A program made the translations under genes and the position numbers. The notes below the pieces were generated by a model. The model worked only from the letters and a program-made list of their open reading frames with translations. It ran no database searches and was not told where the DNA came from. Shown here piece after piece: positions 1 to 13,906 of a stretch of DNA of 13,906 bases (within the stretch, counting starts at the first letter, position 1; each line of letters opens with the position of its first letter). Origin of the DNA: Candidatus Latescibacterota bacterium (GTDB lineage: Bacteria; Latescibacterota; UBA2968; UBA8231); contig CBDCXV010000003.1 of assembly GCA_965223905.1 (NCBI GenBank), positions 1-13,906 of the forward strand. Direction: 5' to 3'.

Positions 1-2721
1 GCGCACGTCCCGCAGCTGCAGGAGCATGAACTTGAACTGCGGCTGGATTTTCAACTTGCCCCAGTAGCGGGTGTAGTCCGCCCTGCTGACCGCGTTCCAC
101 TGGTCCAGCCGCCGCTGGCGCTGGAAAGCCCCGCCGGGCAAGAGCCTCTCCTGCTGCCAGTTGAGGCGCAGGCGCAGCTTCTGCACCGCGTTGAACCCCG
201 GCCGGGGACGCCAGTGTCCTTCCAGGTAGGTCTCGTTGACGTAGCTGTCCGCATACAGCAAAGGATCCGTGCGGATGACGATCGGGTTGCCGGCGATGAC
301 GGCCGGCAAACCGTCGAAGGTCGGAGAGTAGGCGCCGCGAACGATGAGCTCGATGTCCTCCCGGGTGCGGTTGAACTCGTCGGGGATATCGTCCTCCACC
401 CGGCGGAAGTGGTTCTCGAAGAAGATCCGGCGCAGCCGCTCGAGGCCCTCCCGGCGATAGGTCAGCAGGGCGTAGGAGGAGTGGTTGCGGCCGCCACCGG
501 CGATGCTGACCACGTGGTGGCGCCCCATGCCGAAGGAGAGCCGGGGCGTCATGTCGTACTGGGCGAACAGGTGATAGCCGCGCTGGTCGGGGTCGTAGGG
601 GTAATCGGGCTCGTAGTCGTCTTCGCGGATGTCGGGCTCGTCGTTGTTGTTGCGATCGAGGCCGTAGACGAAGTCGTTGGGATCGACCTCGTACATCAGG
701 AACGGCTCCTCGTAGTCGGGCAGCGGGTTGAGGTTGCGGTTGACGTCGGAGATGCCATCGTTGTCGGCGTCCTGACCCGGAAAGGTGCCGTCGCAGTCGA
801 AGCTCCAGCATGTCTGGCCCCGGTCGCCCCCAGCAGGCGCGCCGACGACCGCGCCCAGAAGGACTTCCGGCCAGCGGTCGCCGTCTTCGTTGTCCTGCAC
901 CAGGCGCCAGACCATCGTGTCCTCGGAGAGGCCGAAGAAGGGGTCTATTCTCCTCGTGTACCCCTGGGAGCTGTCCCGCGGCAGGTACGCGACCATCTCG
1001 GTGGTGAAGTCGGGATTCATGGAAAACAGTTCGAAGCCCGCGCGTCCGCGGCCGAACCAACTGGTGCCGTTGACGAAACAGGCAGAGCCCTGATCGGTGA
1101 ATCGCGGGCTGCGGTCGAAGGCCGGAGTGCCGCCTGCTCGAGCGGGGAAGCGGGCGAAGCGGGCGGAGCGCGCGTACTCGCCGGTGATCTCGAAACCCGG
1201 CAGCCCGAGATGCACGTCGGCGCTGTAGGTGAAGATCCCGGTGTTGGCGCCGACGTCGAAACGCACGGTCTCCACGTTGGACTGGTCGCGCACGTTGCCC
1301 CTGGCCCGCAGGACCGTCTGGTAGGGCGTGCTGCGATACTTGCTGTCCAGGTTGCCGGGGGCCTCGACCTCCTCGTAGATGCTGGCCATCTCGACCCGGT
1401 AGTCGTTGCCGACAACGGCCTCGATCTGCACGGATTCGATATCGGGTTCCGCCGACAGATCGTAGATGAAGACGAGGACCTCCTCGCCGTCGGCGCTGAG
1501 GATGTCCTCGGGCGACTCGAGAACGAAGGTCGACAGCAGACCCTCCAGGTGGGTGTTCTTCTCGATGAAATCGGGGTTTTTGTCGCGCCACCGGGTGTCC
1601 TCGTTCTGGAGACGGAAGAGGAAGTCGGAGTCTTCGTGCGACAAGCGGTAGAGAAGGTCGGCGTACAGGGGGATCTCCAGGTCCCGGTAGTAGGACGGCG
1701 CCCTTATGAACTCGTTGTAGTCGAATGTCGGCTGGAACCCGGTCGACAGGTGCCTGCCCACCTGGGTGCCGGTCCGGGCCGGGTGTCGGATCACCGCAGG
1801 GGTGATATCGGGCCGCGGCCTGCCGTCGATGAGGAGCCGGACCTCCTGGACCAGGGCTCCGCCGCTGCCGTCTCCGGGCGAATCGTCGCTGAAGCGCACC
1901 AGCAGCAGCTCGGTCAGGGGATGGTCGGGCCGCAGGATTCCCCTGAGGCTGTTGTCGGTGCCCGTGCTCCGGAACGGGTGCAGGTTGACGCCGTTGAAGC
2001 CGATGCTCAGGGCGCCGATTTCCGCCTGCGTCCGGCTGCCCACCAGCATGGTTGAGTTATCTGTATTCTCCTCGAAGGCGTTGGGGTTGCCGCGCCAGTC
2101 GTGCTCGACGTTCGGCCGGGCGATACGGGAGCCCAGTGCCGTGAACTTGAGATGGGGCGCCGACAGGTCCAGGCGGACGCCGTTGAAATCCGTCATCGAC
2201 AGAGTCAGCGGCGTGAAACGGGAGATCAGACCGTCCCCCACAATGATGCTGTACCCCCACTCCTTGTAGCTGTCGCGTCCCACCACGACCTGGTCGAACA
2301 CGTAATGCCACGAGGTCCAATCCTTGAACAGACTGCTGCCGCTGACCTGTCCCGGCCGGCGGGTTTCCCTCCAGTCGAACAGGTCGTATCCGGTTATCAT
2401 GAAATCTCCCATGCCGCTGTAGAAGGCCTGCGGCCGGTTCTGGAACCCGACGTTCTCATCCAGATCCCAGGGGAAGGTGTGGTCCTTGCGGTGCTCGTAG
2501 AGATCGAAGGCGTAGTTGCGGTAGGGGGGCCGTTCGATGCGAAGGAACGGTCTGGAGTCGAAGATCTCGGGAAGGGCCAGATGATCCTCTTCTTCGGACG
2601 GAGCCGGATCTTCGGCTTCGGAGGAAGCCTGAAGACTCCACAGCAATGTCAGCAGCAACAGGCCGGCGCGCCGGGCGGAGCGAGCGGCCCGCAGATCGAA
2701 TCCCCTTGCGCGCTCAATCAT
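1..2721 (-). CDS. Large exported protein, probable outer-membrane beta-barrel with inserted soluble domain and acidic Dx[DN]xDG-type loops (3' end outside window, >=907 aa)
   Basis: Hand translation from ATG at 2721 gives a stop-free frame to position 1. It begins MIERARGFDLRAARSARRAGLLLLTLLWSLQASSEA (Sec-type signal) 6 nt after the upstream TGA (2728-2730). It has many amphipathic strands (FNGVRLDLS, LKFTALGSR, LSIGFNGVNL, YSADVHLGL, FEITGEYAR, KLRLRLNWQ, LKIQPQFKF) and an acidic block (DNEDGD, DADNDGISD, DRNNNDEPD). It is absent from the ORF track because no stop lies in the window. The ORF is solid; the barrel call is inference. Confidence 0.8.
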   Translation of the reverse strand, partial: MIERARGFDLRAARSARRAGLLLLTLLWSLQASSEAEDPAPSEEEDHLALPEIFDSRPFLRIERPPYRNYAFDLYEHRKDHTFPWDLDENVGFQNRPQAFYSGMGDFMITGYDLFDWRETRRPGQVSGSSLFKDWTSWHYVFDQVVVGRDSYKEWGYSIIVGDGLISRFTPLTLSMTDFNGVRLDLSAPHLKFTALGSRIARPNVEHDWRGNPNAFEENTDNSTMLVGSRTQAEIGALSIGFNGVNLHPFRSTGTDNSLRGILRPDHPLTELLLVRFSDDSPGDGSGGALVQEVRLLIDGRPRPDITPAVIRHPARTGTQVGRHLSTGFQPTFDYNEFIRAPSYYRDLEIPLYADLLYRLSHEDSDFLFRLQNEDTRWRDKNPDFIEKNTHLEGLLSTFVLESPEDILSADGEEVLVFIYDLSAEPDIESVQIEAVVGNDYRVEMASIYEEVEAPGNLDSKYRSTPYQTVLRARGNVRDQSNVETVRFDVGANTGIFTYSADVHLGLPGFEITGEYARSARFARFPARAGGTPAFDRSPRFTDQGSACFVNGTSWFGRGRAGFELFSMNPDFTTEMVAYLPRDSSQGYTRRIDPFFGLSEDTMVWRLVQDNEDGDRWPEVLLGAVVGAPAGGDRGQTCWSFDCDGTFPGQDADNDGISDVNRNLNPLPDYEEPFLMYEVDPNDFVYGLDRNNNDEPDIREDDYEPDYPYDPDQRGYHLFAQYDMTPRLSFGMGRHHVVSIAGGGRNHSSYALLTYRREGLERLRRIFFENHFRRVEDDIPDEFNRTREDIELIVRGAYSPTFDGLPAVIAGNPIVIRTDPLLYADSYVNETYLEGHWRPRPGFNAVQKLRLRLNWQQERLLPGGAFQRQRRLDQWNAVSRADYTRYWGKLKIQPQFKFMLLQLRDVR

Positions 2722-2727
2722 TGCTCG

Positions 2728-4812
2728 TCAATACACCACGGCGACCGGCGCCGCCCTGATCTCCACCTCGCGCCCGAAACGGACTCGCACCCTGGCCAGG
2801 TAAATCCCCGGGGGCACCAGGGCGCCCGACTCGTCGCGGCCGTCCCAGTACCCGGGCAGCGCGGTGGCGTCCCCTCCGCCGAGAGGCCGTACGTACTCGC
2901 CGCCTTCCAGGGGTCCGGCCCGCACCATTCGCACCATGCGACCCCTCAAGTCGAAAACGCCGACTTCCACCCACTGAGGGTCTTCGACCCTGGCCAGGAA
3001 GAACTCGATGGCCGTGCCCTCGTTGACTCCATCTCCGTTCGGACTGAATACATCCGGCTCGGCCCGCACCCCGCCCAGCAGGTCTCCCTCTATCGCGCTT
3101 GCCCGCACGAGCCAGGACCGGCTGGTTCCGGGGTCCGTTTCCCCGGTGTCCTCTTCCGTCTCCAGCGAGACATTTTCAGGACCGTAAACCCGAGACCTCA
3201 TCCTGAAGGATTCGGTCAGCAGGCGAGCCCGGAATTCGACTCTGAGCGTGTCGGATTGCCGCCACACGGATGCGAACCGCAGCTCCAGCCGGTCACCCCA
3301 TGCCACCGCCTCCTCCACGCCGACGCCGGCAGGTGCCTCCACCCTCTCGACCACCGCCCGGCTCGGTGTGGCGATGCGCACCCGCTCCACCCCCGGGTCG
3401 TCCTCCGCGAAGTCGAGGACCAGGAGGTAGGTGAACCGTGTTTCCCGGCCCAGCACCGCCTCGTTGGGTGATACGGAGGCGCGGGTGCTGGAGACCGGAA
3501 TCCGGTCGGTAAAGCCGATGACGAGACTGTCGAGTCGGGGGGCCGCATCCTCGAATCGAGTCTCCAGCTCCACCCGGTACTGCAACCAGACGCGCGGCTC
3601 GGGCACCTGCAGAGCGGCTTCGTCCGCCTCGATCGGCGCGCTCCAGGGACTCCAGGTCACGGCGTCGTCGCTGCTGCGAAACCGCAGCAGCAGGTCCGTA
3701 CCCTCGGGGCGGTCGCCGACCCGGCGGACCGACTCGAAGTTCTTGCGCCGGCCCGGACTGCCCAGATCCATGGGCGCCGATACGAAGCTGCCTTCCGGGG
3801 CCGTACCCGCACCGAGAACCTGGATCTCGGCCACGCGGGCGCTGTTCACCGGGTCGACCTCGGCGACTACGACTTGGAGGAAGCGCGCCATGACCGGATC
3901 GAAGGCGATTCCGGAGCGAATGTACTCTTCGACCCCGTGGCGGACTCCCACTTCTTTCCACAGGAGCCGGTCGTTGCTGACCTGGACCCCGTAACCGAGC
4001 AGCGTGTTGTCGGCCAATTCATCCGGGTCGCTGCCGAAGGTGATGACCCGCACCTCGCCGATAAGGCGAGGCTGCAGCAGATCGACGCGGGCCGAGGCGC
4101 TCAGCGCATCCGGGTTGACCTGCCACCTCGTGGCGAAGTCCCCGTCGAACACCTCGTCGGGGAGGCCCGGTTTTTCATGGGCGAGGTTTTCGCCAAACGT
4201 CGTCCGCAGGGTCAGTCCCCCCTGCGGCCGCCCGGCATCGACTCCCCCCGGAAACCCGGCGATCACTTCGGCTCCCAGGTCATCCGACCAGCCCACCAGC
4301 CGGCTGCGGTCGAGCTGTCCTCTCTGCACCGGCCTCCACACCTCCTCGTCCAGTCTGGCGCTCGTGCGCCAGCCGTCCTCCTCCTGAGGCTCGCCGGTCC
4401 AAAGCCACGGCTCGCTCACACCGCTGGTGTTGCTGGCCCACACCCGGCCCTCGGGTCCCGTGATCTCGACCAGCAGGCCGCTGCCCTGTCCGCGGCCGCT
4501 GTTGTCGACCTGCACGGCGAGATGGTTCCCCCGTCTCCGGAGGGTAACCGGATACTCTTCCACCGTTGTCCAGTTCTCGTCGATTCCCGTGCCCAGCGAC
4601 TCGCCGCCGAAAAAAACCTCGAACGCGTCGACGGCCGTCAGGCGCACGACCGCGCCCCCGGCGACCGCGGCGTTGAAGCTGAAACGGTAGTACACCGTCT
4701 GCGGCCACCGGCCCTGCGAGCATTCGTTCGCCGAGCACACGACCGCACCACCGCCCGGCCGGACGCAGCACAGCAGACAAAGCCCGATGGGAATGATGCG
4801 TATGCCCGGCAT
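2728..4812 (-). CDS. Exported multidomain protein (694 aa): N-terminal beta-sandwich/lectin-like domain, F5/8 type C (discoidin/CBM32-like) domain, further beta domains, C-terminal FlgD-Ig / gliding-motility-CTD-like domain
   Basis: This is the C-terminal part of the listed 2728..5973 ORF. ATG at 4812 lies 5 nt after the upstream TAG (4818-4820) and starts a signal-like MPGIRIIPIGLCLLCCVRPGGGA. Discoidin pattern: ENLA..FDGDFATRW..VDL....IGEVRVI..YGVQVSND..W..FDPVMARFLQV..ARVAEIQVLG (~4194-3810). C-tail: PDVFSPNGDGVNE..VGVFDLRGRMVR..WDGRDESGALVPPGIYLARV (~3060-2731). Confidence 0.85.
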   Translation of the reverse strand: MPGIRIIPIGLCLLCCVRPGGGAVVCSANECSQGRWPQTVYYRFSFNAAVAGGAVVRLTAVDAFEVFFGGESLGTGIDENWTTVEEYPVTLRRRGNHLAVQVDNSGRGQGSGLLVEITGPEGRVWASNTSGVSEPWLWTGEPQEEDGWRTSARLDEEVWRPVQRGQLDRSRLVGWSDDLGAEVIAGFPGGVDAGRPQGGLTLRTTFGENLAHEKPGLPDEVFDGDFATRWQVNPDALSASARVDLLQPRLIGEVRVITFGSDPDELADNTLLGYGVQVSNDRLLWKEVGVRHGVEEYIRSGIAFDPVMARFLQVVVAEVDPVNSARVAEIQVLGAGTAPEGSFVSAPMDLGSPGRRKNFESVRRVGDRPEGTDLLLRFRSSDDAVTWSPWSAPIEADEAALQVPEPRVWLQYRVELETRFEDAAPRLDSLVIGFTDRIPVSSTRASVSPNEAVLGRETRFTYLLVLDFAEDDPGVERVRIATPSRAVVERVEAPAGVGVEEAVAWGDRLELRFASVWRQSDTLRVEFRARLLTESFRMRSRVYGPENVSLETEEDTGETDPGTSRSWLVRASAIEGDLLGGVRAEPDVFSPNGDGVNEGTAIEFFLARVEDPQWVEVGVFDLRGRMVRMVRAGPLEGGEYVRPLGGGDATALPGYWDGRDESGALVPPGIYLARVRVRFGREVEIRAAPVAVVY

Positions 4813-4817
4813 ATCGC

Positions 4818-6059
4818 CTAATCGGCAGCTACCGAGAAGTCGAAGGGGTAGGTCACGACCACCGGCAGGGGAGCCGGCGGAGGCATCGAGGGCCGGGACG
4901 GGTCCGGACCGTCCTGCGGATCTGCCGCCGCCGGAGGGGACTCGGCAGGCCGGAAGCCCAGTTGCTCGATTTCCCGCGCCACGCAGGGACCCACCGAGTC
5001 GTTGCCAACCGTCGACTCGGTCACGGAAACCTCGGTTACCGCCCCTCCCACGCCGATGGTGAAGCGGACGACGACGCGCCCCTGGGTCGCCTCCCCTCTG
5101 TCGAACGGCTCGGCGAAGCAGCGGTCGAACTCCGCCAGTTGCCGGCGGACCTCGGCCCGGATGGCGGCCTCGTCCCGAGTGCGGTCTCCCGGCAGATTTC
5201 CGAGGATCTGGAAAGGGCCGTTCTCGGAGACCATCAGCGCCGCGGCGGTCGCGGCCGGGCCGGCGCCCTTCCCCTCCAGCAGGCGCTGCTCCACCCGGTG
5301 CCGGAAGGCGAAACGCAGATCCCGGGTCTCCTCCGGGATGTCGAAAGCGCCGAAGCGGAGGACGAAATTCCTCAGGTGAAGGATCACCTCTTCGCTTTCG
5401 GCGTACACCGGATCGAAGACGATGAAACCACCGTAGTTCTCGCCTTTGAAAATCGCCTGATTCTCTTCGTAGTTGTGGCTGCGCACGGTTCCCAGCCGCA
5501 CCTCGAAGCGGTAGAACTCGTTTCCGCTCTGTCCTCGGCGGGAGCGGTAGTAGTTCTCGAAGTTTTCGTAGGGCGAAGCCGAAGTAATGCCGTAGGCGCG
5601 CAGGTGCTGGCCCTGGTCGGTGGTGACGACGGCCTCGAGGGGATCGAGCAGCACCTTCGGGAAGGTGCGGTTGAAGATGGTGACCTTGAACACGGTGAAG
5701 CGGTTGGGAGTGTACCCCAGACGGGTATCGACCCAGTTGCCGTAGGTATAGGGATTGGTCGAGTACTTTCCGCGCGACGACTCGTCGGGAAAGAGCCGGT
5801 TCAGCTTTTCGTCGGTCATATGCTCTACCTCGACCCGAAGGCCGGACAATTCCCACGAGATACTGCCGTCCTCCTGGATTGCGTATCTCTCCTCCCCGCT
5901 CCCGGTCTCTCCTGCTCCCCCGACAGGAGTCAGGATCGTCTCGTGCTTGATGGCCGCAGGAAACAGGAAGCATCCGGCCGCCAGCCCCGACAGGGCGGCG
6001 ACCAGCGGTACGGTCAGCCGCCCCCCTGCTCCCGCCGCTCGGGACGCAGGCGACCTCAC
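4818..6059 (-). CDS. Lipoprotein (413 aa) with unknown N-terminal domain and C-terminal AgmX/PglI-type TonB-C-like domain
   Basis: GTG start overlaps the upstream TGA (GTGA, 6056-6059) with AGGA upstream. Lipobox-like LAAG-C30 (Cys codon 5972-5970). The C-terminus AAIRAEVRRQLAEFDRCF..GRVVVRFTIGVGGAVTEVSVTESTVGNDSVGPCVAREIEQLGF..VVVTYPFDF fits the two-Cys AgmX/PglI tail pattern. Confidence 0.85.
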   Translation of the reverse strand: MRSPASRAAGAGGRLTVPLVAALSGLAAGCFLFPAAIKHETILTPVGGAGETGSGEERYAIQEDGSISWELSGLRVEVEHMTDEKLNRLFPDESSRGKYSTNPYTYGNWVDTRLGYTPNRFTVFKVTIFNRTFPKVLLDPLEAVVTTDQGQHLRAYGITSASPYENFENYYRSRRGQSGNEFYRFEVRLGTVRSHNYEENQAIFKGENYGGFIVFDPVYAESEEVILHLRNFVLRFGAFDIPEETRDLRFAFRHRVEQRLLEGKGAGPAATAAALMVSENGPFQILGNLPGDRTRDEAAIRAEVRRQLAEFDRCFAEPFDRGEATQGRVVVRFTIGVGGAVTEVSVTESTVGNDSVGPCVAREIEQLGFRPAESPPAAADPQDGPDPSRPSMPPPAPLPVVVTYPFDFSVAAD

Positions 6060-7312
6060 CTCGTCCTTTCCGTGTAGAAGTCGATCTGCTGCCGAGCGAT
6101 CGATCCCTGCTGCGTCATGGCAAAGACGACAATGTTGACCCCGATCTGCAGCTGGGGCGTATTGCGGAATTCCTTTTCCCAGGCGCGGCCGTATTCCTTG
6201 GTTGACAGCACCACCACGAGCCGGTCCCCGAGGAAGATCCCCTCCAGAAACGGTTTCTCGGGGCGGAACTCGCGGGTGAAGATGACGATGTCCTGGGATC
6301 GTTGCGGCGGCGGACCGTCGTCGAAGTCGTAGAAACTGTGGTAGACGGGATGGTCCTCGGGCAGGACCCGGAAGCGGGCGTCCCGGCCCAGGGCCCCCTT
6401 CAGCATCTGCCGCAGCGAAGCCTCGGCAGGGGTGAACTCTTTCGCCACGGCATCGTGCCGCGTGCCGGATTCGACCATGGCCTCGACGAAGGCGAAGCCG
6501 CCCTGGCGCAGGTAATCACCGAGGTTGGCCATCTCCCTCTCCGTCGGTTCGAAGGCCTGCTCCGCCGCTATGTAGACGAAGGGCGCCCGGAAAATCTCGC
6601 GCGAATCGAGGAACAAGTGGTTGTCCACTTCGGCGCGAATCTGGGTGAAATCGTTTATCGCCTCAACGAGCTCGAACATGGCCCGTTGAGTAGGGGGATC
6701 GAGATCGTTGCCCCAGGCCAGTGCGAGGTAGACGAAACCGGTGATATTCTGCTTGTCGCCGGGATCCTGGATCACCAGCCCCTTGTAGCGGCCGATGTCC
6801 AACGCCTCCAGATCGAGAAATTCCTCCTGCATGCTGATCCGCTTGTCCGGCTCCTTGGGGCTTTCGATGGCAACTCGCTTCACCTCGGGCTGCACGATTT
6901 CCAATCCCAGCCCGGCGCCGCTGTCGACGCCGAACCGGAAGGTGCGGATCTTTCCGGCCAGATCGGGCCGGCGGATCTGCAGCCGATGCGCAATTTGTGG
7001 TTTCGCGGCCCGCACCTGGCGGGTCATCTGCCGCTTGGGCATCTTGCGTTTCTCGAATTCGAAGGGCTTGGTCATGCGCGGTTTGCGCACCACCAGGTGC
7101 ATGACCGGCGGCTTGGGCGGCTTCTTTTTTTCTTCGCGCAGGGAGAGAAAGGCGAGGGGCAGCGACAGAAGCACGAAGGCGACGGCAACGGCAGCCCAGG
7201 TCAGCCGCCGCTGGAGCCGCAGCAAGTCCTCCAGCTGGAGAAAATCGGTCGGGGTAGAGAAACGCCGCGATCTCCGGCCAGGCCGATCCGCCGCGGAGCT
7301 CTCCCGGTTCAT
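6056..7312 (-). CDS. Bitopic membrane protein (418 aa): TM helix, Lys/Pro/Arg-rich linker, C-terminal DUF4159-like domain
   Basis: ATG at 7312 overlaps the TPR gene stop (ATGA, 7309-7312), so it is preferred over 7333. TM LTWAAVAVAFVLLSLPLAFLSL is followed by EEKKKPPKPPV. DUF4159-like motifs: PFVYI..EMANLGDYLRQGGFAFVE..LPEDHPVYHSFYDF..LEGIFLGDRLVVV..GVNIVVFAMTQ. Confidence 0.82.
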   Translation of the reverse strand: MNRESSAADRPGRRSRRFSTPTDFLQLEDLLRLQRRLTWAAVAVAFVLLSLPLAFLSLREEKKKPPKPPVMHLVVRKPRMTKPFEFEKRKMPKRQMTRQVRAAKPQIAHRLQIRRPDLAGKIRTFRFGVDSGAGLGLEIVQPEVKRVAIESPKEPDKRISMQEEFLDLEALDIGRYKGLVIQDPGDKQNITGFVYLALAWGNDLDPPTQRAMFELVEAINDFTQIRAEVDNHLFLDSREIFRAPFVYIAAEQAFEPTEREMANLGDYLRQGGFAFVEAMVESGTRHDAVAKEFTPAEASLRQMLKGALGRDARFRVLPEDHPVYHSFYDFDDGPPPQRSQDIVIFTREFRPEKPFLEGIFLGDRLVVVLSTKEYGRAWEKEFRNTPQLQIGVNIVVFAMTQQGSIARQQIDFYTERTR

Positions 7313-10300
7313 AGGCGGGTGGTCTCGATCCATTCCTTGTGCATGCGCGCGAAGCGATAGGCCTCGACCTGCTCGGCCGCCTCGCCGTCGAAGCGGCTCA
7401 GAACCCTCTCGTACGCTTCAACCGCCTTGTCCCACTCTTCCAGGGACTCGTAGCAGACACCCATATTGCTCAGCGCCCCGATTTCGCTCTCGGTACCTGG
7501 ATATGTCTCGACGATGCCTGCGAACCCTTTAATGGCCTCGCGGAACTGGTCCGGGTCCTGTTCCTCGAGCGCTTTCACGAAAACCGCCTCCACCTCGGCG
7601 TAAGTGCGATAGGCCACGACCTCGCGAAGATCTTCCAGCAACGGCGGCACCTTCCGCGCCGCGTCGCTGTCGGGGAAACGGGCCAGCACCGCGTTGTAGG
7701 CGTCGAGCGCTTCGACGTAGCGCTTCTGGTTGTAGAGGAAGTCGCCGATCGTGAACTGGGCGTCGGCGGCCAGAGGACTCTCCGGATACCCGGAAGAGAG
7801 TCGCTCGAAATCCCTCAATGCCTCTCCGTCCCGCTCGAGGTTCAGAAGTGACCAGGCCTTGTTGTAGAGCGCGCCGTCCGCCAGGTCGGCCGCAGGGTAT
7901 CGGTCCAGGAGACCCTGATAGGAGTCCAGGGCTTTGTCGAAACGATCGAGGTTGTACTCCGCTTCCGCGGCGCGAAAGAGCGCATCCGGCGCCAGTTCGC
8001 TGGCGGGGTAGGTCGAGGCCAACTCGCTGAAGACGACCGCCGCCCGCTCGAAGCGGGTCAGGTTGAACAAGGCGTAGCCGAGATAGTAGAGGCCGTAAGC
8101 GCGGTTGGGGTGTCCCTGGTGAGCGTGCAGGTAGGACTCCAGCGCCTCGCCGGCAACTTCGAGATCGCCCTTGTCGAACAGCGCCTGACCCAGCGCAAAC
8201 CGCATGTCGCCGGCGTAGTAGGAGTCGGGGTATTCGTCCAGGGCCCGGCGATAAACGGCGATCAGGCTGTCGGCCATGTCCTGCTGGCCGTACCCGTCGC
8301 CCAGCAGGAAGTAAGCCTTCTCCTTTTTCGCGTAGGGCTGGTCGCCGCGCCCGTCGGGAATATCAGAGGATATGAGCTCGCGGCACAGCGATTCGAGGCG
8401 CGTGAAATTTCCCAGCCTGAAATGCAGCTCGGCCAGCACGACCAGGTGTCGGGCGCGCTCCTGCCCGGATGCCGCGGCCGCCGCCAGTGTTTCGAAGTCC
8501 TCCAAGGCCTCCCGCTCGCGTCCCATCTCCAGATGGACAAGACCGAGCATGCGGCGCGCAGAAGCTGCCATCTCAGCGTTTTCCCCCTGCACCAGTTGCT
8601 GCAGATCGGACGCGGCCGCCGGCAGACGCCCGAGCTTCAGCAGGCTGACCCCACGGCCGTAAAGGGCGCCCTCGCGAACTGTGCGATCATCCGCGATGTC
8701 GATGGTCCGGGTAAGTGCCTCGACGGCATCTTCGAACTTTTCCATCTCGATCGCCGTCCGGCCCTTCATGTAGTGGAAGCGCGCCCGGTCCGCCGCTACG
8801 GTGACGGCTGCCAGGCCCCGGTCCAGCACCTCGAGGGCGGCCCCATGGTCGCCTTCGGATGCCAGCAGATTGGCGGCTTCCAGCATGGCCTTGGCAAACA
8901 GCTCCGACTGCGGCTCGATGCTTTCGAAGGCCGCGACCGCCGGCTCCGGCTCCCCCAGGTCCCGGTAGCACAGCGCCATCTCGAACCGGGCTCCGGGCAA
9001 CTGCGGGTCTCCGGGAAACTCCTCCAGAATCTGCTCATAGGCCGCGATGGCCAGCCGGTATTCGCCGCGCTGGAAGCGGATTCTTCCGATCTGGAAGAGG
9101 GCGCTGCGCACATATTCCCGCTCTATCCCATCCTCGACGATGGAATCGAAGAGCTCCATCGCCCGCGTCTCGAAGGGGGTGTCCCCTTCGCCGATCATCT
9201 GGTAGCAGAGGCCGATGTTGAACGGAACCGCCCCGGCGGCCAGCTCGCCGTCGGGATAGTCCCGCGCGATCGACTCGTAGACCTCGATCGCCTTCAGATA
9301 GGAGACCCTGGCGGTCCGGGGCCGTTGGGCCCGGCGTTCGATTTCGGCTGCTTCGAAGTGCGCCCTGCCGATCTTGTAGCTCGCCCAGGGTTCCGACAGC
9401 CCCGCGGCCATTGCCACGTCTCCGTAGGCGTCCAGGTAGAGGTGGTATTCGAAAATCGCCTGCTCGTAGTCCCCGTTGTCGTAGTAGTATTCGGCCAGCA
9501 GCGACTGCATGCCGCCCTGAAAGATTCGATCCCGGCTGTTGTCGATGGCCTCGCCGTAAGTGCGCACGGCGCTGTCCCGGTCCCCGGACCGGGTGTAGAT
9601 GCCGGCCAGCCGGATATACGCCTCCGAGACCAGCCGCTGCTCCTGGGAAAACGCGGTAATCACCTTGCGGTACGACGCTGCTGCTGCCTCTGAGTCGCCG
9701 CGGCGGGCATGGCTGTCGCCGATCTTGATCTGCGCCTTGGCCGCCAGCTCGATCGCCGTTTCGTCCACCAGTCCGGCCATCTTCTCGCGCCGCATCTTGA
9801 GCAGCTCACGGTCGCTCATCAGGTCGATGTTCTGCCGCTCGACGACTTTCCTGTACGCGGCAGCGGCCTCGGCGAAGCGTTCCTGTTCGAAGTTGGCCTC
9901 GCCGAGCTGGAACTGGGCTCTTTCCGACCGGTATCCGGTCGGAAACCGCTGCTGGAAGTTCTCGAACGCCTCTATACTCTCGGAATGGCGCCCGGCGTCG
10001 AAGTAAGCCCAGCCAATATTGTAGAGCACGTTCTCCAGGAAATCGCTACCGGGGTATTTCTCGAGAAAGACCCTGCCCTCTTCGACCGTCTCGTCGTAGT
10101 TCCCGCTCTCGTAAAGGCAGGTGATCAACCGGTTGCGGGCGAGGTCCGGCAGCCCCGGGGTCAGCGCCTCCGACTCGGTCCGGCGGAAGAAATCGGCGGC
10201 GCGAGCGAAATCTTCCGCGGCCTGTACCCGGAGGCGCTCGGCGCGCCGCGGGTCCCGGGAGTGAAGCGCCAGGTTCTTCCTCTCCTGGGCCCTTTTCAGG

Positions 10301-10563
10301 TAGCTGTTGCCGGTCTGATACAGGGCGATCTCCTGAATCGGACCCTGGATCTGTCCGACCTCCGTCGTGATTTCCAAACTGAACAGAAGAGAGCTCCGGA
10401 TGCGGTTGATGCGTTCGTAGGTCTCTATCGCCTGCTCGTAGTCTTCGGCGGCGTAAAACTTCTGGGCCTGCTTGAAGGAAGCCCGCACTTCGTCAGGGGT
10501 GGGCACGAAGTGCGAACCGATCACGAGCCCGGTCAGGGCGGTGACGATGAGCCAGGGAGCCAT
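7309..10563 (-). CDS. Large tetratricopeptide-repeat protein (1084 aa), BamD/CpoB(YbgF)-style TPRs, N-terminal hydrophobic anchor/signal
   Basis: Long ORF with repeated TPR hairpins of the type YP.S..A..A.F..G (KYPGSDFLENVLYNIG, RFPTGYRSERAQFQLG, TYPASELAPDALFRAA, GYPESPLAADAQFTIG). N-terminus MAPWLIVTALTGLVIGSHF is hydrophobic. Confidence 0.92.
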   Translation of the reverse strand: MAPWLIVTALTGLVIGSHFVPTPDEVRASFKQAQKFYAAEDYEQAIETYERINRIRSSLLFSLEITTEVGQIQGPIQEIALYQTGNSYLKRAQERKNLALHSRDPRRAERLRVQAAEDFARAADFFRRTESEALTPGLPDLARNRLITCLYESGNYDETVEEGRVFLEKYPGSDFLENVLYNIGWAYFDAGRHSESIEAFENFQQRFPTGYRSERAQFQLGEANFEQERFAEAAAAYRKVVERQNIDLMSDRELLKMRREKMAGLVDETAIELAAKAQIKIGDSHARRGDSEAAAASYRKVITAFSQEQRLVSEAYIRLAGIYTRSGDRDSAVRTYGEAIDNSRDRIFQGGMQSLLAEYYYDNGDYEQAIFEYHLYLDAYGDVAMAAGLSEPWASYKIGRAHFEAAEIERRAQRPRTARVSYLKAIEVYESIARDYPDGELAAGAVPFNIGLCYQMIGEGDTPFETRAMELFDSIVEDGIEREYVRSALFQIGRIRFQRGEYRLAIAAYEQILEEFPGDPQLPGARFEMALCYRDLGEPEPAVAAFESIEPQSELFAKAMLEAANLLASEGDHGAALEVLDRGLAAVTVAADRARFHYMKGRTAIEMEKFEDAVEALTRTIDIADDRTVREGALYGRGVSLLKLGRLPAAASDLQQLVQGENAEMAASARRMLGLVHLEMGREREALEDFETLAAAAASGQERARHLVVLAELHFRLGNFTRLESLCRELISSDIPDGRGDQPYAKKEKAYFLLGDGYGQQDMADSLIAVYRRALDEYPDSYYAGDMRFALGQALFDKGDLEVAGEALESYLHAHQGHPNRAYGLYYLGYALFNLTRFERAAVVFSELASTYPASELAPDALFRAAEAEYNLDRFDKALDSYQGLLDRYPAADLADGALYNKAWSLLNLERDGEALRDFERLSSGYPESPLAADAQFTIGDFLYNQKRYVEALDAYNAVLARFPDSDAARKVPPLLEDLREVVAYRTYAEVEAVFVKALEEQDPDQFREAIKGFAGIVETYPGTESEIGALSNMGVCYESLEEWDKAVEAYERVLSRFDGEAAEQVEAYRFARMHKEWIETTRL

Positions 10564-10872: not shown

Positions 10873-11616
10873 ATGGAAACGCTGATGTCAGGCGGCATCC
10901 TGATGATCCCATTGGGGCTGTGCGCCCTGTTGGCCCTGGGCTTCGCCCTCGAACGGCTCTGGGTCCTCTCCCATATTCCCGACGCGGAAAATGCCCAGAA
11001 CATCCTCGAAGAGGCGGAACGATGCCTCGTCGACCGGGGAGAGGCAGCCGCGGCCGAATACTGCCGCGACCACGATGGCCCGCTGACCTACATCTTCGCT
11101 TCCCTGCTCAAGCGCTTCGCCACCCTCATGCTGGAGCGGCGCGAACTTCAGGCCACCGAGGAGCAGATGGCGCGTTTATCGGAGCAGGCCGGCGCCGGTG
11201 CGCTGTCTCACTTCATGCTCCGGCTGAAGGCTTTGGGAGACCTGAGGGACGAGCTCGTGCTCGAGACCGACGAGGCCGGCAAAGCCTACCTTGGCCGGCA
11301 CCTGGTCGTGCTCAACACAATCGGAAACATCGCGCCGCTGCTGGGACTGTTCGGCACGATTCTCGGCATGATCACCGCCTTCGAGGCGATTGCCGCGGCC
11401 GGCACCGGCGATCCCAAGGTGGTAGCCGGGGGAATCTCGCAGGCGCTCGTCACCACCGCTGCGGGGCTCGCCATCGCCATCCCCTCCATCGTCGTCTACC
11501 GCTACCTGGCCCGGCGGGCCGAGCATTTTCGCGGCCACCTGGAAGTGTACGGGCTGGCCTTCGTCAACAGCCTCCTCGTCGCCGGGCAGAAACAGCTCGA
11601 CGAGGCGGGCGCCTGA
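10873..11616 (+). CDS. exbB: MotA/TolQ/ExbB family proton-channel protein (247 aa)
   Basis: ATG 10873 has RBS GGAGA at 10862-10866. TM1 is GGILMIPLGLCALLALGFALERLW. Family signature: TIGNIAPLLGLFGTILGMITAF..VAGGISQALVTTAAGLAIAIPSIVVY. ExbB and TolQ cannot be separated by eye. Confidence 0.93.
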   Translation: METLMSGGILMIPLGLCALLALGFALERLWVLSHIPDAENAQNILEEAERCLVDRGEAAAAEYCRDHDGPLTYIFASLLKRFATLMLERRELQATEEQMARLSEQAGAGALSHFMLRLKALGDLRDELVLETDEAGKAYLGRHLVVLNTIGNIAPLLGLFGTILGMITAFEAIAAAGTGDPKVVAGGISQALVTTAAGLAIAIPSIVVYRYLARRAEHFRGHLEVYGLAFVNSLLVAGQKQLDEAGA

Positions 11617-12035
11617 TGGCGCTGGTCCGCCACCGGGTCCGCCAGGCCCTTGCGGAGGAGGGCGAGACCGACCTGACGTCGTTGATCGACTGCGTGTTTC
11701 TGCTGCTCATCTTCTTCATGGTCACCACCGTCTTCATCCACACGAAAGGGCTCGACGTCGACCTGCCGGCCAAGAGCGAGACGACGGAGCAGAAGAAGAA
11801 GGATATCAACGTCCACGTAGGTGCACAGGGGCGCATCCGGATCGGCGGCGTCGACGCGGCGCCGAGCGCACTGGTAGCGCGGCTCAAGCAGGCCATGCAA
11901 GAAGCGAACAACGACAACATCATCATCCAGGGCCATCCCGACTGCGCGCAGGAACGGATCGTGCTCGTCGTGGATGCAGCCAAGGCGGCGGACGTAGCCG
12001 GCATCGCCTTTGCCAAGGAAGAGGGTGGGCGCTAG
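11616..12035 (+). CDS. exbD: ExbD/TolR family biopolymer transporter subunit 1 (139 aa)
   Basis: ATG overlaps the exbB stop (TGATG). DLTSLIDCVFLLLIFFMVTT carries the conserved TM Asp, followed by GLDVDLP and the IIIQGH..IVLVVDAAKAA periplasmic fold pattern. Confidence 0.92.
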   Translation: MALVRHRVRQALAEEGETDLTSLIDCVFLLLIFFMVTTVFIHTKGLDVDLPAKSETTEQKKKDINVHVGAQGRIRIGGVDAAPSALVARLKQAMQEANNDNIIIQGHPDCAQERIVLVVDAAKAADVAGIAFAKEEGGR

Positions 12036-12475
12036 TGCCTGCGCGCGCGACGATCGAGGAGGAACTCGATGGCGATCGGCTCAACATGACGCCGATGATC
12101 GACTGCGTGTTTCTGCTGTTGATTTTCTTCATGGTCACCACTGTCTTCAGGCAGCCTCACACCCTGAAGGTCGAGCTGCCCCAAGCTCGTGAGGCGACGA
12201 TAGTGGAAGAGAAGAAACTGGTGGCCTCCATAGACAGTGGCGGGGCGCTCGAGCTCAACCGCCAGCACCTTACCACGGCGGATCTCCCAGGTGTACTGGC
12301 TCGGGAGAAGGAGAGGACGCGCAGCCTGACGCTGATCATTCGCACCGACAAGAAGACCCGGCACGGAATGGTCCTTGAAGTGATGGAAATAGCCAAGGCA
12401 CTTAAAATCGACAAGGTGGTCCTGGCGACGGACGAGCTCGAGGACGCAGCCGCAGGACTGTATCCCACACCCTGA
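12035..12475 (+). CDS. exbD: ExbD/TolR family biopolymer transporter subunit 2 (146 aa)
   Basis: GTG overlaps the upstream TAG (TAGTG) with GAGGG upstream. Motifs LNMTPMIDCVFLLLIFFMVTT, LKVELPQA and LIIRTDKKTRHGMVLEVMEIAK. Confidence 0.93.
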   Translation: MPARATIEEELDGDRLNMTPMIDCVFLLLIFFMVTTVFRQPHTLKVELPQAREATIVEEKKLVASIDSGGALELNRQHLTTADLPGVLAREKERTRSLTLIIRTDKKTRHGMVLEVMEIAKALKIDKVVLATDELEDAAAGLYPTP

Positions 12476-12576: not shown

Positions 12577-13906
12577 ATGACGGAGACTGCGGGTTTCACC
12601 GTGCCGGCAGGGCAGCGCCAGCTGTTCATCGACGGTCACGGCATCGCCGCCATCGAAAACCTCAAGCGCAGTTTGCACCAGCCCTCCAAGAAGGGAGCGG
12701 TTATCCGCCCGACTCGGGACGAAAAGGGCGTGCAATCCCGCAGCACCCCTCACTGGAACGAGCAGCTCGGACTGTTCCGGTTGCTCGCCGACGGCAAGTG
12801 GTATCAAAGCCCCGACGGACTGCACTGGACCCGGGATAAAACCCCGCCGCTCGTAAACGAGGAGGCGCCCTGGGCACACGTTCTCTACGAGCCGGACGAC
12901 CCCGATCCACAACGCCGCTACAAGGGCCTCACTTCGCACGTCGTCAATCTCGATACCGGCAAAAGAGTGGTGCATTCCTCCGAGCGCGTCGACGAGTTCG
13001 GCAAGCCCCTGAAGGGCAAGAGATTCGCACGCACGATGGACTTCATGACCTCTGCCGACGGCGCCGACTGGAATCTGCTCGACGCCGGAATACCGACCTT
13101 CGACGAATGGAACCTGAGCTGCGACTCACTGGGTGGGCAGTACATAATCGCCTGCAAGACGTCGGGTACCTACGGCCGCTCGCATGCTATCAGCACGAGC
13201 CCCGATTTCGCCGACTGGACCGACCCCGTGCTTTCCATTCAAGCCGATGATCTCGACCAGGAGCTCGGCCGCCTCCACATCGAGGAGTACCTGAAATCCT
13301 CGAATGCGGACTACCTGAAACCGTTTCCCAATACATGTGAATGGGCCTGGCAGAACGTTGACATCTACAACGCCGGAGTCTTCCGCTACGAGGGCATCTT
13401 CCTCGCGTTGCCGGCGATTTACCACGCGCGCGGCGAGCGCTGGACCAGCCATACCCTGCGTTTCACGCTCATTCAGCTCTGGTCGAGCCGCGACCTCTAC
13501 ACCTGGGAGCGGGTGGCGAATCGACAGACATTCATTCCCTGGTCAGCGGGCGGGGCCGGCGCCTACGACCTCAACAAGAACCTGCCCCCTTCCTATCCGC
13601 TCGTGCGCGGCGACGAGCTCTGGTTTTACTACAGCGGGCGCAAGGAACAGTCCGTCTACCCGGATCCGGACCCGGACATCTCGGCCATCTGCCTCTGCAT
13701 CCTGCGGCGGGACGGATTCGTCTCGCTCGATGCCGACTCGGAAGAGGGCCGTCTCGTCACCGAGGCGTTCCCGGTCCCCGGCGACAGACTCTTCCTCAAC
13801 GCCAACGCGGAGAAGGGGCAGCTCATTGTTGAAATGCTCGATGAGAGCGGGGAAAGGGTGGCGTTGTCGACCCCGATTGAAAGCGACGAGCGACGGGTCG
13901 AGATCC
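12577..13906 (+). CDS. Asp-box beta-propeller protein, glycoside-hydrolase-like (GH32/GH43/sialidase-like fold), no signal peptide; 3' end outside window (>=443 aa)
   Basis: Hand translation from ATG 12577 is stop-free to the edge: MTETAGFTVPAGQRQLFIDGHGIAAIENLKRSLHQP... It has four Asp-box-like motifs (SPDGLHW, SADGADW, SPDFADW, SRDLYTW), plus DELWFYYSG and LRRDGFVSLDA leading into a C-terminal beta domain. It is absent from the ORF track. Substrate unknown. Confidence 0.8.
   Translation, partial: MTETAGFTVPAGQRQLFIDGHGIAAIENLKRSLHQPSKKGAVIRPTRDEKGVQSRSTPHWNEQLGLFRLLADGKWYQSPDGLHWTRDKTPPLVNEEAPWAHVLYEPDDPDPQRRYKGLTSHVVNLDTGKRVVHSSERVDEFGKPLKGKRFARTMDFMTSADGADWNLLDAGIPTFDEWNLSCDSLGGQYIIACKTSGTYGRSHAISTSPDFADWTDPVLSIQADDLDQELGRLHIEEYLKSSNADYLKPFPNTCEWAWQNVDIYNAGVFRYEGIFLALPAIYHARGERWTSHTLRFTLIQLWSSRDLYTWERVANRQTFIPWSAGGAGAYDLNKNLPPSYPLVRGDELWFYYSGRKEQSVYPDPDPDISAICLCILRRDGFVSLDADSEEGRLVTEAFPVPGDRLFLNANAEKGQLIVEMLDESGERVALSTPIESDERRVEI

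Follow-up and report, generated by a model that had tools for sequence, protein, structure and literature searches.

What is the role of a very large protein, without annotated relatives, that is encoded at the edge of a contig from a Candidatus Latescibacterota bacterium? Latescibacterota are uncultured, widespread bacteria thought to live on complex polysaccharides, and a sponge-associated occurrence of the organism is indicated by the labels of RNA sequencing runs. The stretch of DNA analyzed here (the window) comprises 13,906 nucleotides (GenBank assembly GCA_965223905.1, contig CBDCXV010000003.1), and its minus strand holds, between an ATG at position 2721 and position 1, a frame of 907 open codons that runs off the contig start. 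The initial annotation of the window had placed a gene for a barrel-like protein of more than 907 residues at this site, and the gene could be followed to its full length. It belongs to a multi-copy family of predicted outer-membrane barrels, which is undescribed in the libraries searched, and members of this family are repeatedly encoded directly behind genes whose products carry C-terminal domains of the kind found in type IX secretion system (T9SS) cargo. A putative function of the barrel as a docking or uptake platform for such cargo is the reading we tentatively prefer, although we rate its probability as slightly below even.

Recovery and predicted fold of the barrel protein

The window represents the entire contig C3 of an assembly of 11 contigs and 7.9 Mb, so that the gene is truncated by the contig end and not by mutation. 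A protein of 1021 amino acids, encoded on a 3.7-Mb contig of a different assembly (P0005), is 100% identical to the window protein across all 907 residues. The final 100 residues, with two residue differences, are encoded on the minus strand in the last 300 bases of contig C8 of the same assembly as the window, and approximately 14 residues are missing in the gap between the two contigs. Because the end of C8 encodes the tail of the barrel protein, C8 continues C3.

The barrel gene is real and constrained. At E ≤ 0.001, 178 proteins among the candidates scored were homologous, many of them 45–70% identical, and a crude dN/dS of ~0.33 was obtained in comparison with the syntenic ortholog (877 codons). 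Furthermore, four RNA libraries from one sponge metatranscriptome study contained contigs that match stretches of the barrel gene and its upstream neighbor without a difference. One of these contigs spans the 7-nt junction from the stop of the neighbor to the start of the barrel gene, and another extends 41 nt past the first base of the window. DNA carry-over is a possible source of the contigs in all of these libraries. Parts of the barrel gene that are not covered by such contigs provide no evidence either way.

An AlphaFold2 model of the 1021-residue protein, built with a 91-sequence alignment, reached a mean predicted local distance difference test score (pLDDT) of 85.2 and a predicted template modelling score (pTM) of 0.84. 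It contains more than 20 strands of 10–18 residues arranged in hairpins, or ~24–28 long strands as estimated from the secondary-structure list. The long strands fall into residues 145–251, 484–568, and 713–1013, the last one occupying residues 1001–1013, and a terminal strand is conserved near the C-terminus of the family. The prediction of a large beta-barrel of the outer-membrane type is made with high confidence. A signal peptide had been assigned to the protein earlier, and a signal-peptide-like stretch is visible by eye in the translation; a crude pattern found a signal-type N-terminus in 112 of 148 family members. Residues 1–94 are mostly of low confidence in the model and contain a single helix. 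The strands that had been recognized from about residue 150 onwards correspond to the first long strands of the model, which start at residue 145.

The sixth long strand is followed by a domain of short strands and five helices (353–398), which coincides with the soluble-looking insertion of ~230 residues in the initial annotation (nucleotides ~1950–1250, residues ~257–490). When residues 255–485 were folded alone with an alignment of their own (62 sequences), the model had a pLDDT of 87.9 and a pTM of 0.86. Modelling therefore confirmed a separate unit predicted to fold independently, and with it the idea of a barrel interrupted by an inserted domain. The structural matches of this domain were generic beta-sandwiches, namely Ig-like domains of pilins and adhesins and some carbohydrate-binding modules (best Z 7.4 over 99 residues). 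None reached Z 8, and no Foldseek match was found at E ≤ 0.001.

A second stretch that had been read as an insertion, an acidic one, is present at residues 607–712, where the pLDDT varies between 58 and 92; aspartate and glutamate make up 25% of residues 596–720. It is, however, the most conserved part of the family, as 14 of the 34 invariant columns in the alignment of 91 sequences fall into this block, and it also cross-matches paralogs at the DNA level. We consequently regard the acidic block as a family signature and not as a variable insertion. Judged by the type of its motif, it probably binds calcium.

No described family accounted for the barrel. The 907-residue protein had no Pfam match at E ≤ 0.01 and no NCBIfam match at E ≤ 0.1, and P0005 matched nothing in Pfam at E ≤ 10 other than SlpA_C. 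The Plug domain (PF07715) was accordingly absent at both Pfam thresholds, and the receptor barrel (PF00593) was found neither in the barrel protein nor in the paralogs searched. A Pfam search of 16 paralogs at E ≤ 1 gave only faint noise (Excalibur, FimA) and SlpA_C matches below threshold, and nothing that resembled a TonB-dependent transporter (TBDT). Of the 27 Plug and 26 receptor-barrel matches in the genome, none lies at a family gene. No TonB box was evident by eye in the translation or the alignment consensus, for which no formal test was made. The same 16 paralogs (6 + 10) lacked the PorP/SprF family (PF11751) at E ≤ 1, a comparison of the family profile with a Latescibacterota PorP-like protein in hhalign gave a probability of 0.2%, and SprA_N (PF14349) was not found in the barrel family, nor was there any POTRA, usher, or SprA family match. 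Searches of the Protein Data Bank by sequence, with the single protein or with the 91-sequence profile, returned nothing meaningful. The ESM Atlas yielded unnamed clusters only, with DUF6029 as the nearest named one (0.89), an unconfirmed lead. Hence, the barrel family has no Pfam, NCBIfam, or solved relative in the libraries searched.

Structural comparisons agreed on the general fold. With the full model, Foldseek retrieved outer-membrane barrels only, at low TM-scores. The top matches were MtrB (E 2e-8, TM 0.20/0.30) and SlpA (E 9e-8, TM 0.23/0.24), further matches were TonB-dependent receptors, SprA (TMq 0.23), LptD, and ushers, and FhaC/CdiB and FimD also occurred among the fold matches. 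In an exhaustive VIA search, SlpA ranked first (7zgx_A; Z 13.5, root-mean-square deviation 7.7 Å, 402 residues, model residues 142–1013), followed at a distance of ~1 Z unit by maltoporin (Z 12.5) and AlgE (12.4), and then by BamA (12.2) and CymA (11.9). TBDTs scored around 11 (FecA 11.3, BtuB3 11.0), SusC chains ~10–11.6, SprA 11.2 (325 residues aligned), and LptD 9.4–10.1. Neither the model nor these searches indicated a soluble fold or a standard 22-stranded barrel with a plug, in line with the earlier view that the protein is no classical TBDT. The closer likeness to SprA that had been suggested at the same time was not specifically supported, since SprA is just one of many barrels matched at this level. 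The structural lead of SlpA agrees with the sole recurrent Pfam signal, SlpA_C (PF21620), which always covered profile positions ~217–323 and always stayed below the 35-bit cut-off (13.7 bits in P0005; 19.7–22.7 and 13–21.2 bits in relatives, the best being 27.0). Ahead of the barrel, no Pfam domain such as SLH was found, and the model has no long N-terminal helix that would correspond to a coiled coil. Based on these models, we read the protein as a large barrel of the outer membrane to which no closely related structure has been solved; it may share a distant kinship with the barrel of SlpA.

A multi-copy family and its upstream partner genes

The genome harbors 35 paralogs of the barrel gene, detected by tblastn as stop-to-stop frames of 867–1564 amino acids. 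Beyond this genome, 543 representative clusters (50% identity) were homologous at E ≤ 0.001, and 406 stretches were confirmed in contigs of one genome per species. From the latter, 75 loci were kept, to which all counts for related loci refer; their titles name Candidatus Latescibacterota and, in the case of some metagenome-assembled genomes, Gemmatimonadetes/Gemmatimonadaceae or an uncultured bacterium. In a sample of the phylum, the family occurred in 35 of 61 genomes (E ≤ 1e-10) and in 10 of 13 taxonomic families, and it was not found in the sampled genomes of f2 (0/16), f3 (0/3), and f7 (0/5). A first look at one relative gave as many as 83 candidates. Given this number and the 35 copies in the genome of the window, the barrels are likely a main feature of the cell surface.

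A paralog tree (FastTree, midpoint root, supports not inspected) separated a 20-gene clade with a common distinctive N-terminus, a few divergent genes, and three subfamilies that track the position in runs of three genes, referred to as a (first after the partner gene), b (second), and c (third). The window gene is of type c. Downstream of its tail, C8 carries another partner-like gene, which is broken up into several frames, and then two further family members, which results in the order partner 1 – c (window) – partner 2 – a – b from C3 into C8. Two other arrays of the genome have the order partner – a – b – c. Array patterns in the related loci were c (42 loci), cc (13), abc (10), ccc (5), and cab (1), which indicates that type c has multiplied on its own in related genera and that the triplet was kept in 11 loci. 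This recurring a/b/c set among the 75 loci hints at a hetero-oligomer. Regarding the second partner-like gene (G000:C8:42114-44049, minus strand), its four pieces lie in different frames, due to either decay or assembly indels; the gene of a tetratricopeptide repeat (TPR) protein in the closest related locus, L028, is split over frames likewise.

The barrel gene begins 7 nt past the stop codon of its upstream partner. This partner had been part of a 1081-residue open reading frame (ORF; 2728-5973, minus strand), which is genuine only from ~4779 downwards. Its first ~400 residues are an arginine-rich out-of-frame read-through that overlaps, in a different frame, the gene of a TonB_C-like protein (4818-6059). 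Partner homologs, mainly of the C-terminal half, were found upstream of 22 of the 25 arrays in the genome (our grouping). Among 20 upstream ORFs, 14 match CHU_C (11 of these at or above the 27-bit cut-off) and two more match FlgD_ig only, always at the extreme C-terminus. The same 20 proteins include seven with an F5/8 type C domain, one with CBM9, and one DUF6785/DUF6784 membrane protein. Seventeen tails, including that of the window partner, could be aligned over ~100 residues and end in [VIL][AV]Y. As a side observation, these 17 tails (window 2731-3030 and L102-L121) share the pattern PNGDGxN ... WDGxD ... PPGxY ahead of this terminus and represent a distinct T9SS-like sub-type, with scores intermediate between those of the type A and type B models.

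The association of the two gene types in this genome was far above random expectation. Of the 46 CHU_C domains of the genome above cut-off, 16 have their end no more than 300 nt upstream of a family gene with the same orientation (random mean 0.06, maximum 2 in 2000 trials), and 27 lie within ≤5 kb upstream of a family gene (random mean 0.45, maximum 4 in 2000 trials). Counted over 97 family genes of the related loci, the upstream neighbor was another family member in 25 cases and partner-like in 20, and was otherwise diverse or absent.

The genome also encodes components of a T9SS, with one SprA (SprA_N at C10:1150349, in a 2069-residue frame), weak PorV-like matches, and at least 150 FlgD_ig tails. 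As SprA_N occurs in 55 of the 61 phylum genomes and is nearly universal, its co-occurrence with the barrel family is uninformative. No report on a T9SS in Latescibacter was found in the literature searched.

A link to T9SS cassettes is provided by two other genomes, in which a CHU_C protein is followed by a PorP/SprF-like gene and then by one or more big barrels (L136, G001:C224:1-10270; L137, G031:C46:1-6776). The PorP/SprF-like proteins (317 residues in G001, which has three barrel copies, and 297 residues in G031) score just above the Pfam cut-off. Since the PorP-like gene shares the cassette in these two genomes, the barrel family is tied to T9SS cargo cassettes. PF11751 was not found in the genome of the window (93.6% complete) in a search that was weak, as control genomes were silent too. 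In the phylum sample, 18 of 61 genomes contained it. One genus accounts for 14 of them, with PF11751 in all of its 14 genomes and the barrel family in none, and four genomes have both. A simple replacement of PorP by the barrel was considered and dropped, because one lineage drives the pattern, four genomes have both, and the cassettes are shared.

Candidate roles of the barrel

According to the tentatively preferred reading, the barrel is a putative outer-membrane docking or uptake platform for lectin-like proteins delivered by the T9SS. The upstream partner would be exported by this system, through SprA, and its C-terminal domain would then be handed to the barrel, where it would dock and stay at the cell surface, by analogy with the PorP/SprF barrels, which in Bacteroidota accept type B cargo and anchor it. 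Barrel and partner would together form a glycan-capturing surface unit, and diffusion of the captured fragments through the wide, plug-less barrel to the periplasm may take place as well. By its putative binding of calcium, the acidic block would probably stiffen the loops. As the c member of an a/b/c triplet, the window protein may assemble together with the a and b members.

Several observations weigh against this reading. The CHU_C match (PF13585) of the window partner stays below the 27-bit cut-off, with 18.1 bits (E 0.003), although the tail aligns over its full length with those of the other partners, and the partner has no NCBIfam match. None of 19 partner tails passes the NCBIfam type B model TIGR04131 (best 32.3 versus 35), and a weak likeness of the tails to those of type A and of PorU was seen, too. 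Because they score under the type B cut-off and show this additional likeness, we refer to them as T9SS-type, and as type-B-like at most. The barrel itself has no sequence relation to PorP/SprF and is three times larger, and where a PorP-like gene is present, its product could anchor the cargo itself, leaving another role to the big barrel. One high-quality genome (G015) has the family and no SprA_N match. Finally, the gene order of the window is not general. With two small hidden Markov models built from the partner tails and applied to the 75 related loci, a tail-bearing ORF was detected directly upstream in 28 of 79 arrays with full flanks, only downstream in one, and not at all in 50. The barrel therefore need not depend on adjacent cargo. 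Among the 28 upstream proteins, eight end in a type-A-like tail (for example in L030). A complex prediction of a short paralog (L025, residues 27–849) with the last 127 residues of its upstream partner (L107) scored 0.00 twice and, with the controls unfolded, does not bear on docking either way.

The alternative that survives best, although we consider it unlikely, is a plug-less nutrient channel that would represent the phylum's counterpart of SusC or of specific porins in loci resembling those for polysaccharide utilization, with lectins as optional and undocked companions. It would readily explain the 50 arrays without an adjacent protein bearing a T9SS-type tail, and also the large and variable copy number, which is known from SusC-like genes. 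The genes around the barrels point in the same direction. A Pfam scan of 79 neighbors in 13 partner-less loci revealed sulfatases, FG-GAP/UnbV_ASPIC proteins, GH106 with GH2_N, and FGE-sulfatase proteins, and in L034 a sulfatase gene is located directly upstream of the barrel gene. Peptidases, PhyH dioxygenases, and a DUF6785/DUF6784 protein followed by an FlgD_ig protein were found in the same scan, besides unrelated housekeeping genes and mobile elements, and DUF2961 proteins also occur beside family genes in other genomes. Many copies thus reside in neighborhoods of the sugar or sulfated-glycan type without dedicated cargo, and this sugar context suits the docking platform as well. The fold matches to maltoporin, AlgE, and CymA fit a channel as well. 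On the other hand, the genome already has ~27 classical TonB-dependent receptors, and a nutrient channel leaves unexplained why, in the genome of the window, the barrels follow T9SS-type cargo genes in such a tight and repeated order.

The gene order of cargo then barrel, together with the very large size of the barrel and the presence of SprA, FhaC/CdiB, FimD, and LptD among its fold matches, could also be read as a pore dedicated to exporting or assembling the partner, following the logic of two-partner secretion, ushers, or SprA, which comes close to the translocon idea of the initial annotation. We regard this as improbable: the partners have T9SS-type tails, and the organism's own SprA and the numerous FlgD_ig-type tails encoded elsewhere show that a general route exists. 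The absence of POTRA, usher, and SprA family matches speaks against such a pore too, and SprA did not score better than unrelated barrels. Even less probable is a structural protein related to SlpA/OmpM that tethers or stabilizes the envelope. SlpA is the best structural match, and the recurrent SlpA_C matches cover the same profile stretch in many members; all of these scores are nevertheless below the cut-off and the next barrels follow within ~1 Z unit, SLH and other Pfam matches are lacking, as is a long N-terminal helix in the model, and 35 divergent paralogs that are mostly linked to cargo are unlike a housekeeping tether.

Very improbable, lastly, is an atypical TBDT powered by the nearby ExbB, two ExbD, and TonB_C/AgmX-like proteins, all encoded within 10 kb and in the same order in L028, since FecA and BtuB3 among the fold matches are set against the missing Plug and receptor-barrel matches, the lack of a visible TonB box, and the neighborhood data. 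Of the 75 related loci, only L028, from the closest relative, keeps the order of the TPR, DUF4159, TonB_C-like, and ExbBD genes, no ExbBD-type neighborhood occurs at any of the other arrays of the genome that were looked at, and the TonB_C-like protein carries a signal of the lipoprotein type and neither a membrane anchor nor a proline-rich spacer. We therefore regard the ExbBD cluster as one that by chance adjoins the array and not as the energy source of the barrel, so that the view of the barrel as the likely outer-membrane channel of the system, put forward in the initial annotation, is not specifically supported. What stands of that interpretation is a predicted barrel with an inserted domain that is not a TBDT.

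Returning to the docking platform, a far-reaching version of it appears distinctly unlikely at present. It would make the family a third kind of T9SS cargo receiver, consisting of giant, plug-less, calcium-stiffened barrels, some of them a/b/c hetero-trimers, which would anchor lectins and enzymes and double as an uptake pore. Such barrels would be a TonB-independent, T9SS-fed counterpart of SusCD with dozens of substrate-specific copies per genome. The pairing of outer-membrane barrels and surface proteins within T9SS cargo cassettes is known in kind; the barrel family itself is undescribed in the libraries searched. If the barrels receive T9SS cargo, the rule that a cargo is paired with its cognate shuttle barrel would extend beyond the Bacteroidota and involve a barrel of quite another type. 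As uptake pores, they would represent a new route of glycan import. With a name for the family and a model of it in the libraries, thousands of proteins now listed as hypothetical would become annotated as proteins of the outer membrane.

Neighboring genes and comparison with known systems

Table 1 Features of the window and arrays of the a/b/c type in the genome. Positions refer to the window unless a contig is given; residue numbers refer to the respective protein.
Feature	Position	Strand	Basis
Barrel-protein gene, first 907 of 1021 codons, type c family member	1..2721	-	Translation; P0005; C8 tail
Signal-peptide-like N-terminus, basic stretch and hydrophobic run ~17-33 (residues 1-34)	2620..2721	-	Translation; model helix 19-30, low pLDDT
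Conserved N-terminal region, low-to-middling confidence, four short strands 98-133 (residues 35-144)	2290..2619	-	Alignment; model
First six long barrel strands, predicted, 145-152, 155-170, 174-188, 191-200, 222-235, 238-251 (residues 145-251)	1969..2289	-	Model
Predicted inserted beta-sandwich domain with five-helix sub-insert (residues 255-485)	1267..1959	-	Model; folded alone
Further predicted long barrel strands, site of the recurrent sub-threshold SlpA_C match (residues 484-606)	904..1272	-	Pfam; model
Acidic, mostly coil block, DxDxDG-like motif at residue 651 (residues 607-712)	586..903	-	Alignment; composition; model
C-terminal run of predicted long barrel strands (residues 713-907), remainder to 1001-1013 beyond the contig end	1..585	-	Model; P0005
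Upstream partner gene, 683 residues from Met at 4779, F5/8 type C domain and C-terminal T9SS-type beta-sandwich domain	2728..4779	-	Pfam; tail alignment
Partner F5/8 type C / NedA-like galactose-binding domain (residues 206-307)	3859..4164	-	PF22633 29.4 bits (cut-off 27.8); PF00754 28.0 (cut-off 28.2)
Partner C-terminal domain, last ~100 residues, V-V-Y type terminus	2731..3030	-	Alignment with CHU_C/FlgD_ig-type tails of 16 other partners
Lipoprotein-like protein, AgmX/PglI / TonB_C-like C-terminal domain	4818..6059	-	NF033768, 59.6 bits
DUF4159 protein	6056..7333	-	Pfam
1084-residue TPR protein, first gene of the minus-strand run	7309..10563	-	Pfam
ExbB ~10873-11616, ExbD ~11616-12035, ExbD 12035-12475, divergent from the minus-strand run	10873..12475	+	Pfam
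Own-genome a/b/c arrays	Window 1-2721 and G000:C8:36645-45018; G000:C10:2104866-2116020; G000:C1:1494109-1504660		Tree

The features of the window are listed in Table 1. The C-terminal domain type AgmX/PglI of the lipoprotein-like neighbor is known from gliding-motility proteins of Myxococcus and is not that of a classical TonB. The window further contains an open-ended ORF of 443 codons on the plus strand (12577-13905) without a Pfam family. In 10 of the 75 related loci (L032, L036, L044, L048, L067, L073, L076, L090, L093, and L096), a homolog of it (24–68% identity) lies no further than 10 kb from a barrel gene.

Two additional gene types were observed near barrel genes elsewhere. PhyH genes flank the barrel genes in L033, L040, L053, L060, and L063, abutting the start side of the barrel gene in L033, L053, and L060 and the end side in L063. 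Proteins combining DUF6785 and DUF6784 (~660–700 residues) are encoded next to barrel or partner genes at three sites in different genomes (G000:C1:1219103-1221112, L030:5484-7589, and L060:14139-16124), and are possibly the inner-membrane part of the same system.

Among the known systems, the PorP/SprF barrels offer the closest parallel in gene order. In Flavobacterium johnsoniae, a type B cargo gene is commonly followed directly by a porP/sprF-like gene that encodes the cognate shuttle (PMC12618676), and PorP-like proteins have been proposed as surface anchors of type B cargo (PMC9143113). Similarly, the barrel genes described here lie directly downstream of a gene with a CHU_C or type-B-like tail, exist in many cargo-specific copies per genome, and share a cassette with a PorP/SprF-like gene in two Latescibacterota genomes. 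In contrast to PorP/SprF proteins, the barrel has ~1000 instead of ~300 residues, no sequence relation, an inserted domain, and an acidic block, its genes often form runs of two or three, and in other genomes a neighboring cargo gene is lacking for many copies.

SlpA of Deinococcus radiodurans (PF21620; PDB 7zgx/8ae1), a 30-stranded barrel as reported (PMC9388160), is the best structural match and the only recurring Pfam family. However, besides the sub-threshold scores and low TM-scores and the lack of an SLH domain and coiled coil, the barrels are multi-copy and locus-specific, whereas SlpA is one abundant tether. With SprA/Sov, the family shares the very large barrel with inserted domains and the occurrence in a T9SS-bearing organism. 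It is half the size of SprA (~2000–2400 residues), has no SprA_N and an unexceptional Z-score against it, and coexists with a separate SprA in the genome. The SusC/SusD systems of Bacteroidota, finally, resemble the barrel loci in that a multi-copy big barrel and a glycan-binding surface protein are encoded together in sugar-degradation clusters. Their SusC barrels match the model with unremarkable Z-scores only; unlike them, the Latescibacterota barrel has neither plug nor TonB box, the gene of the binder comes first, so that the order is reversed, and the binder is a T9SS-type cargo protein and not a lipoprotein of the SusD fold.

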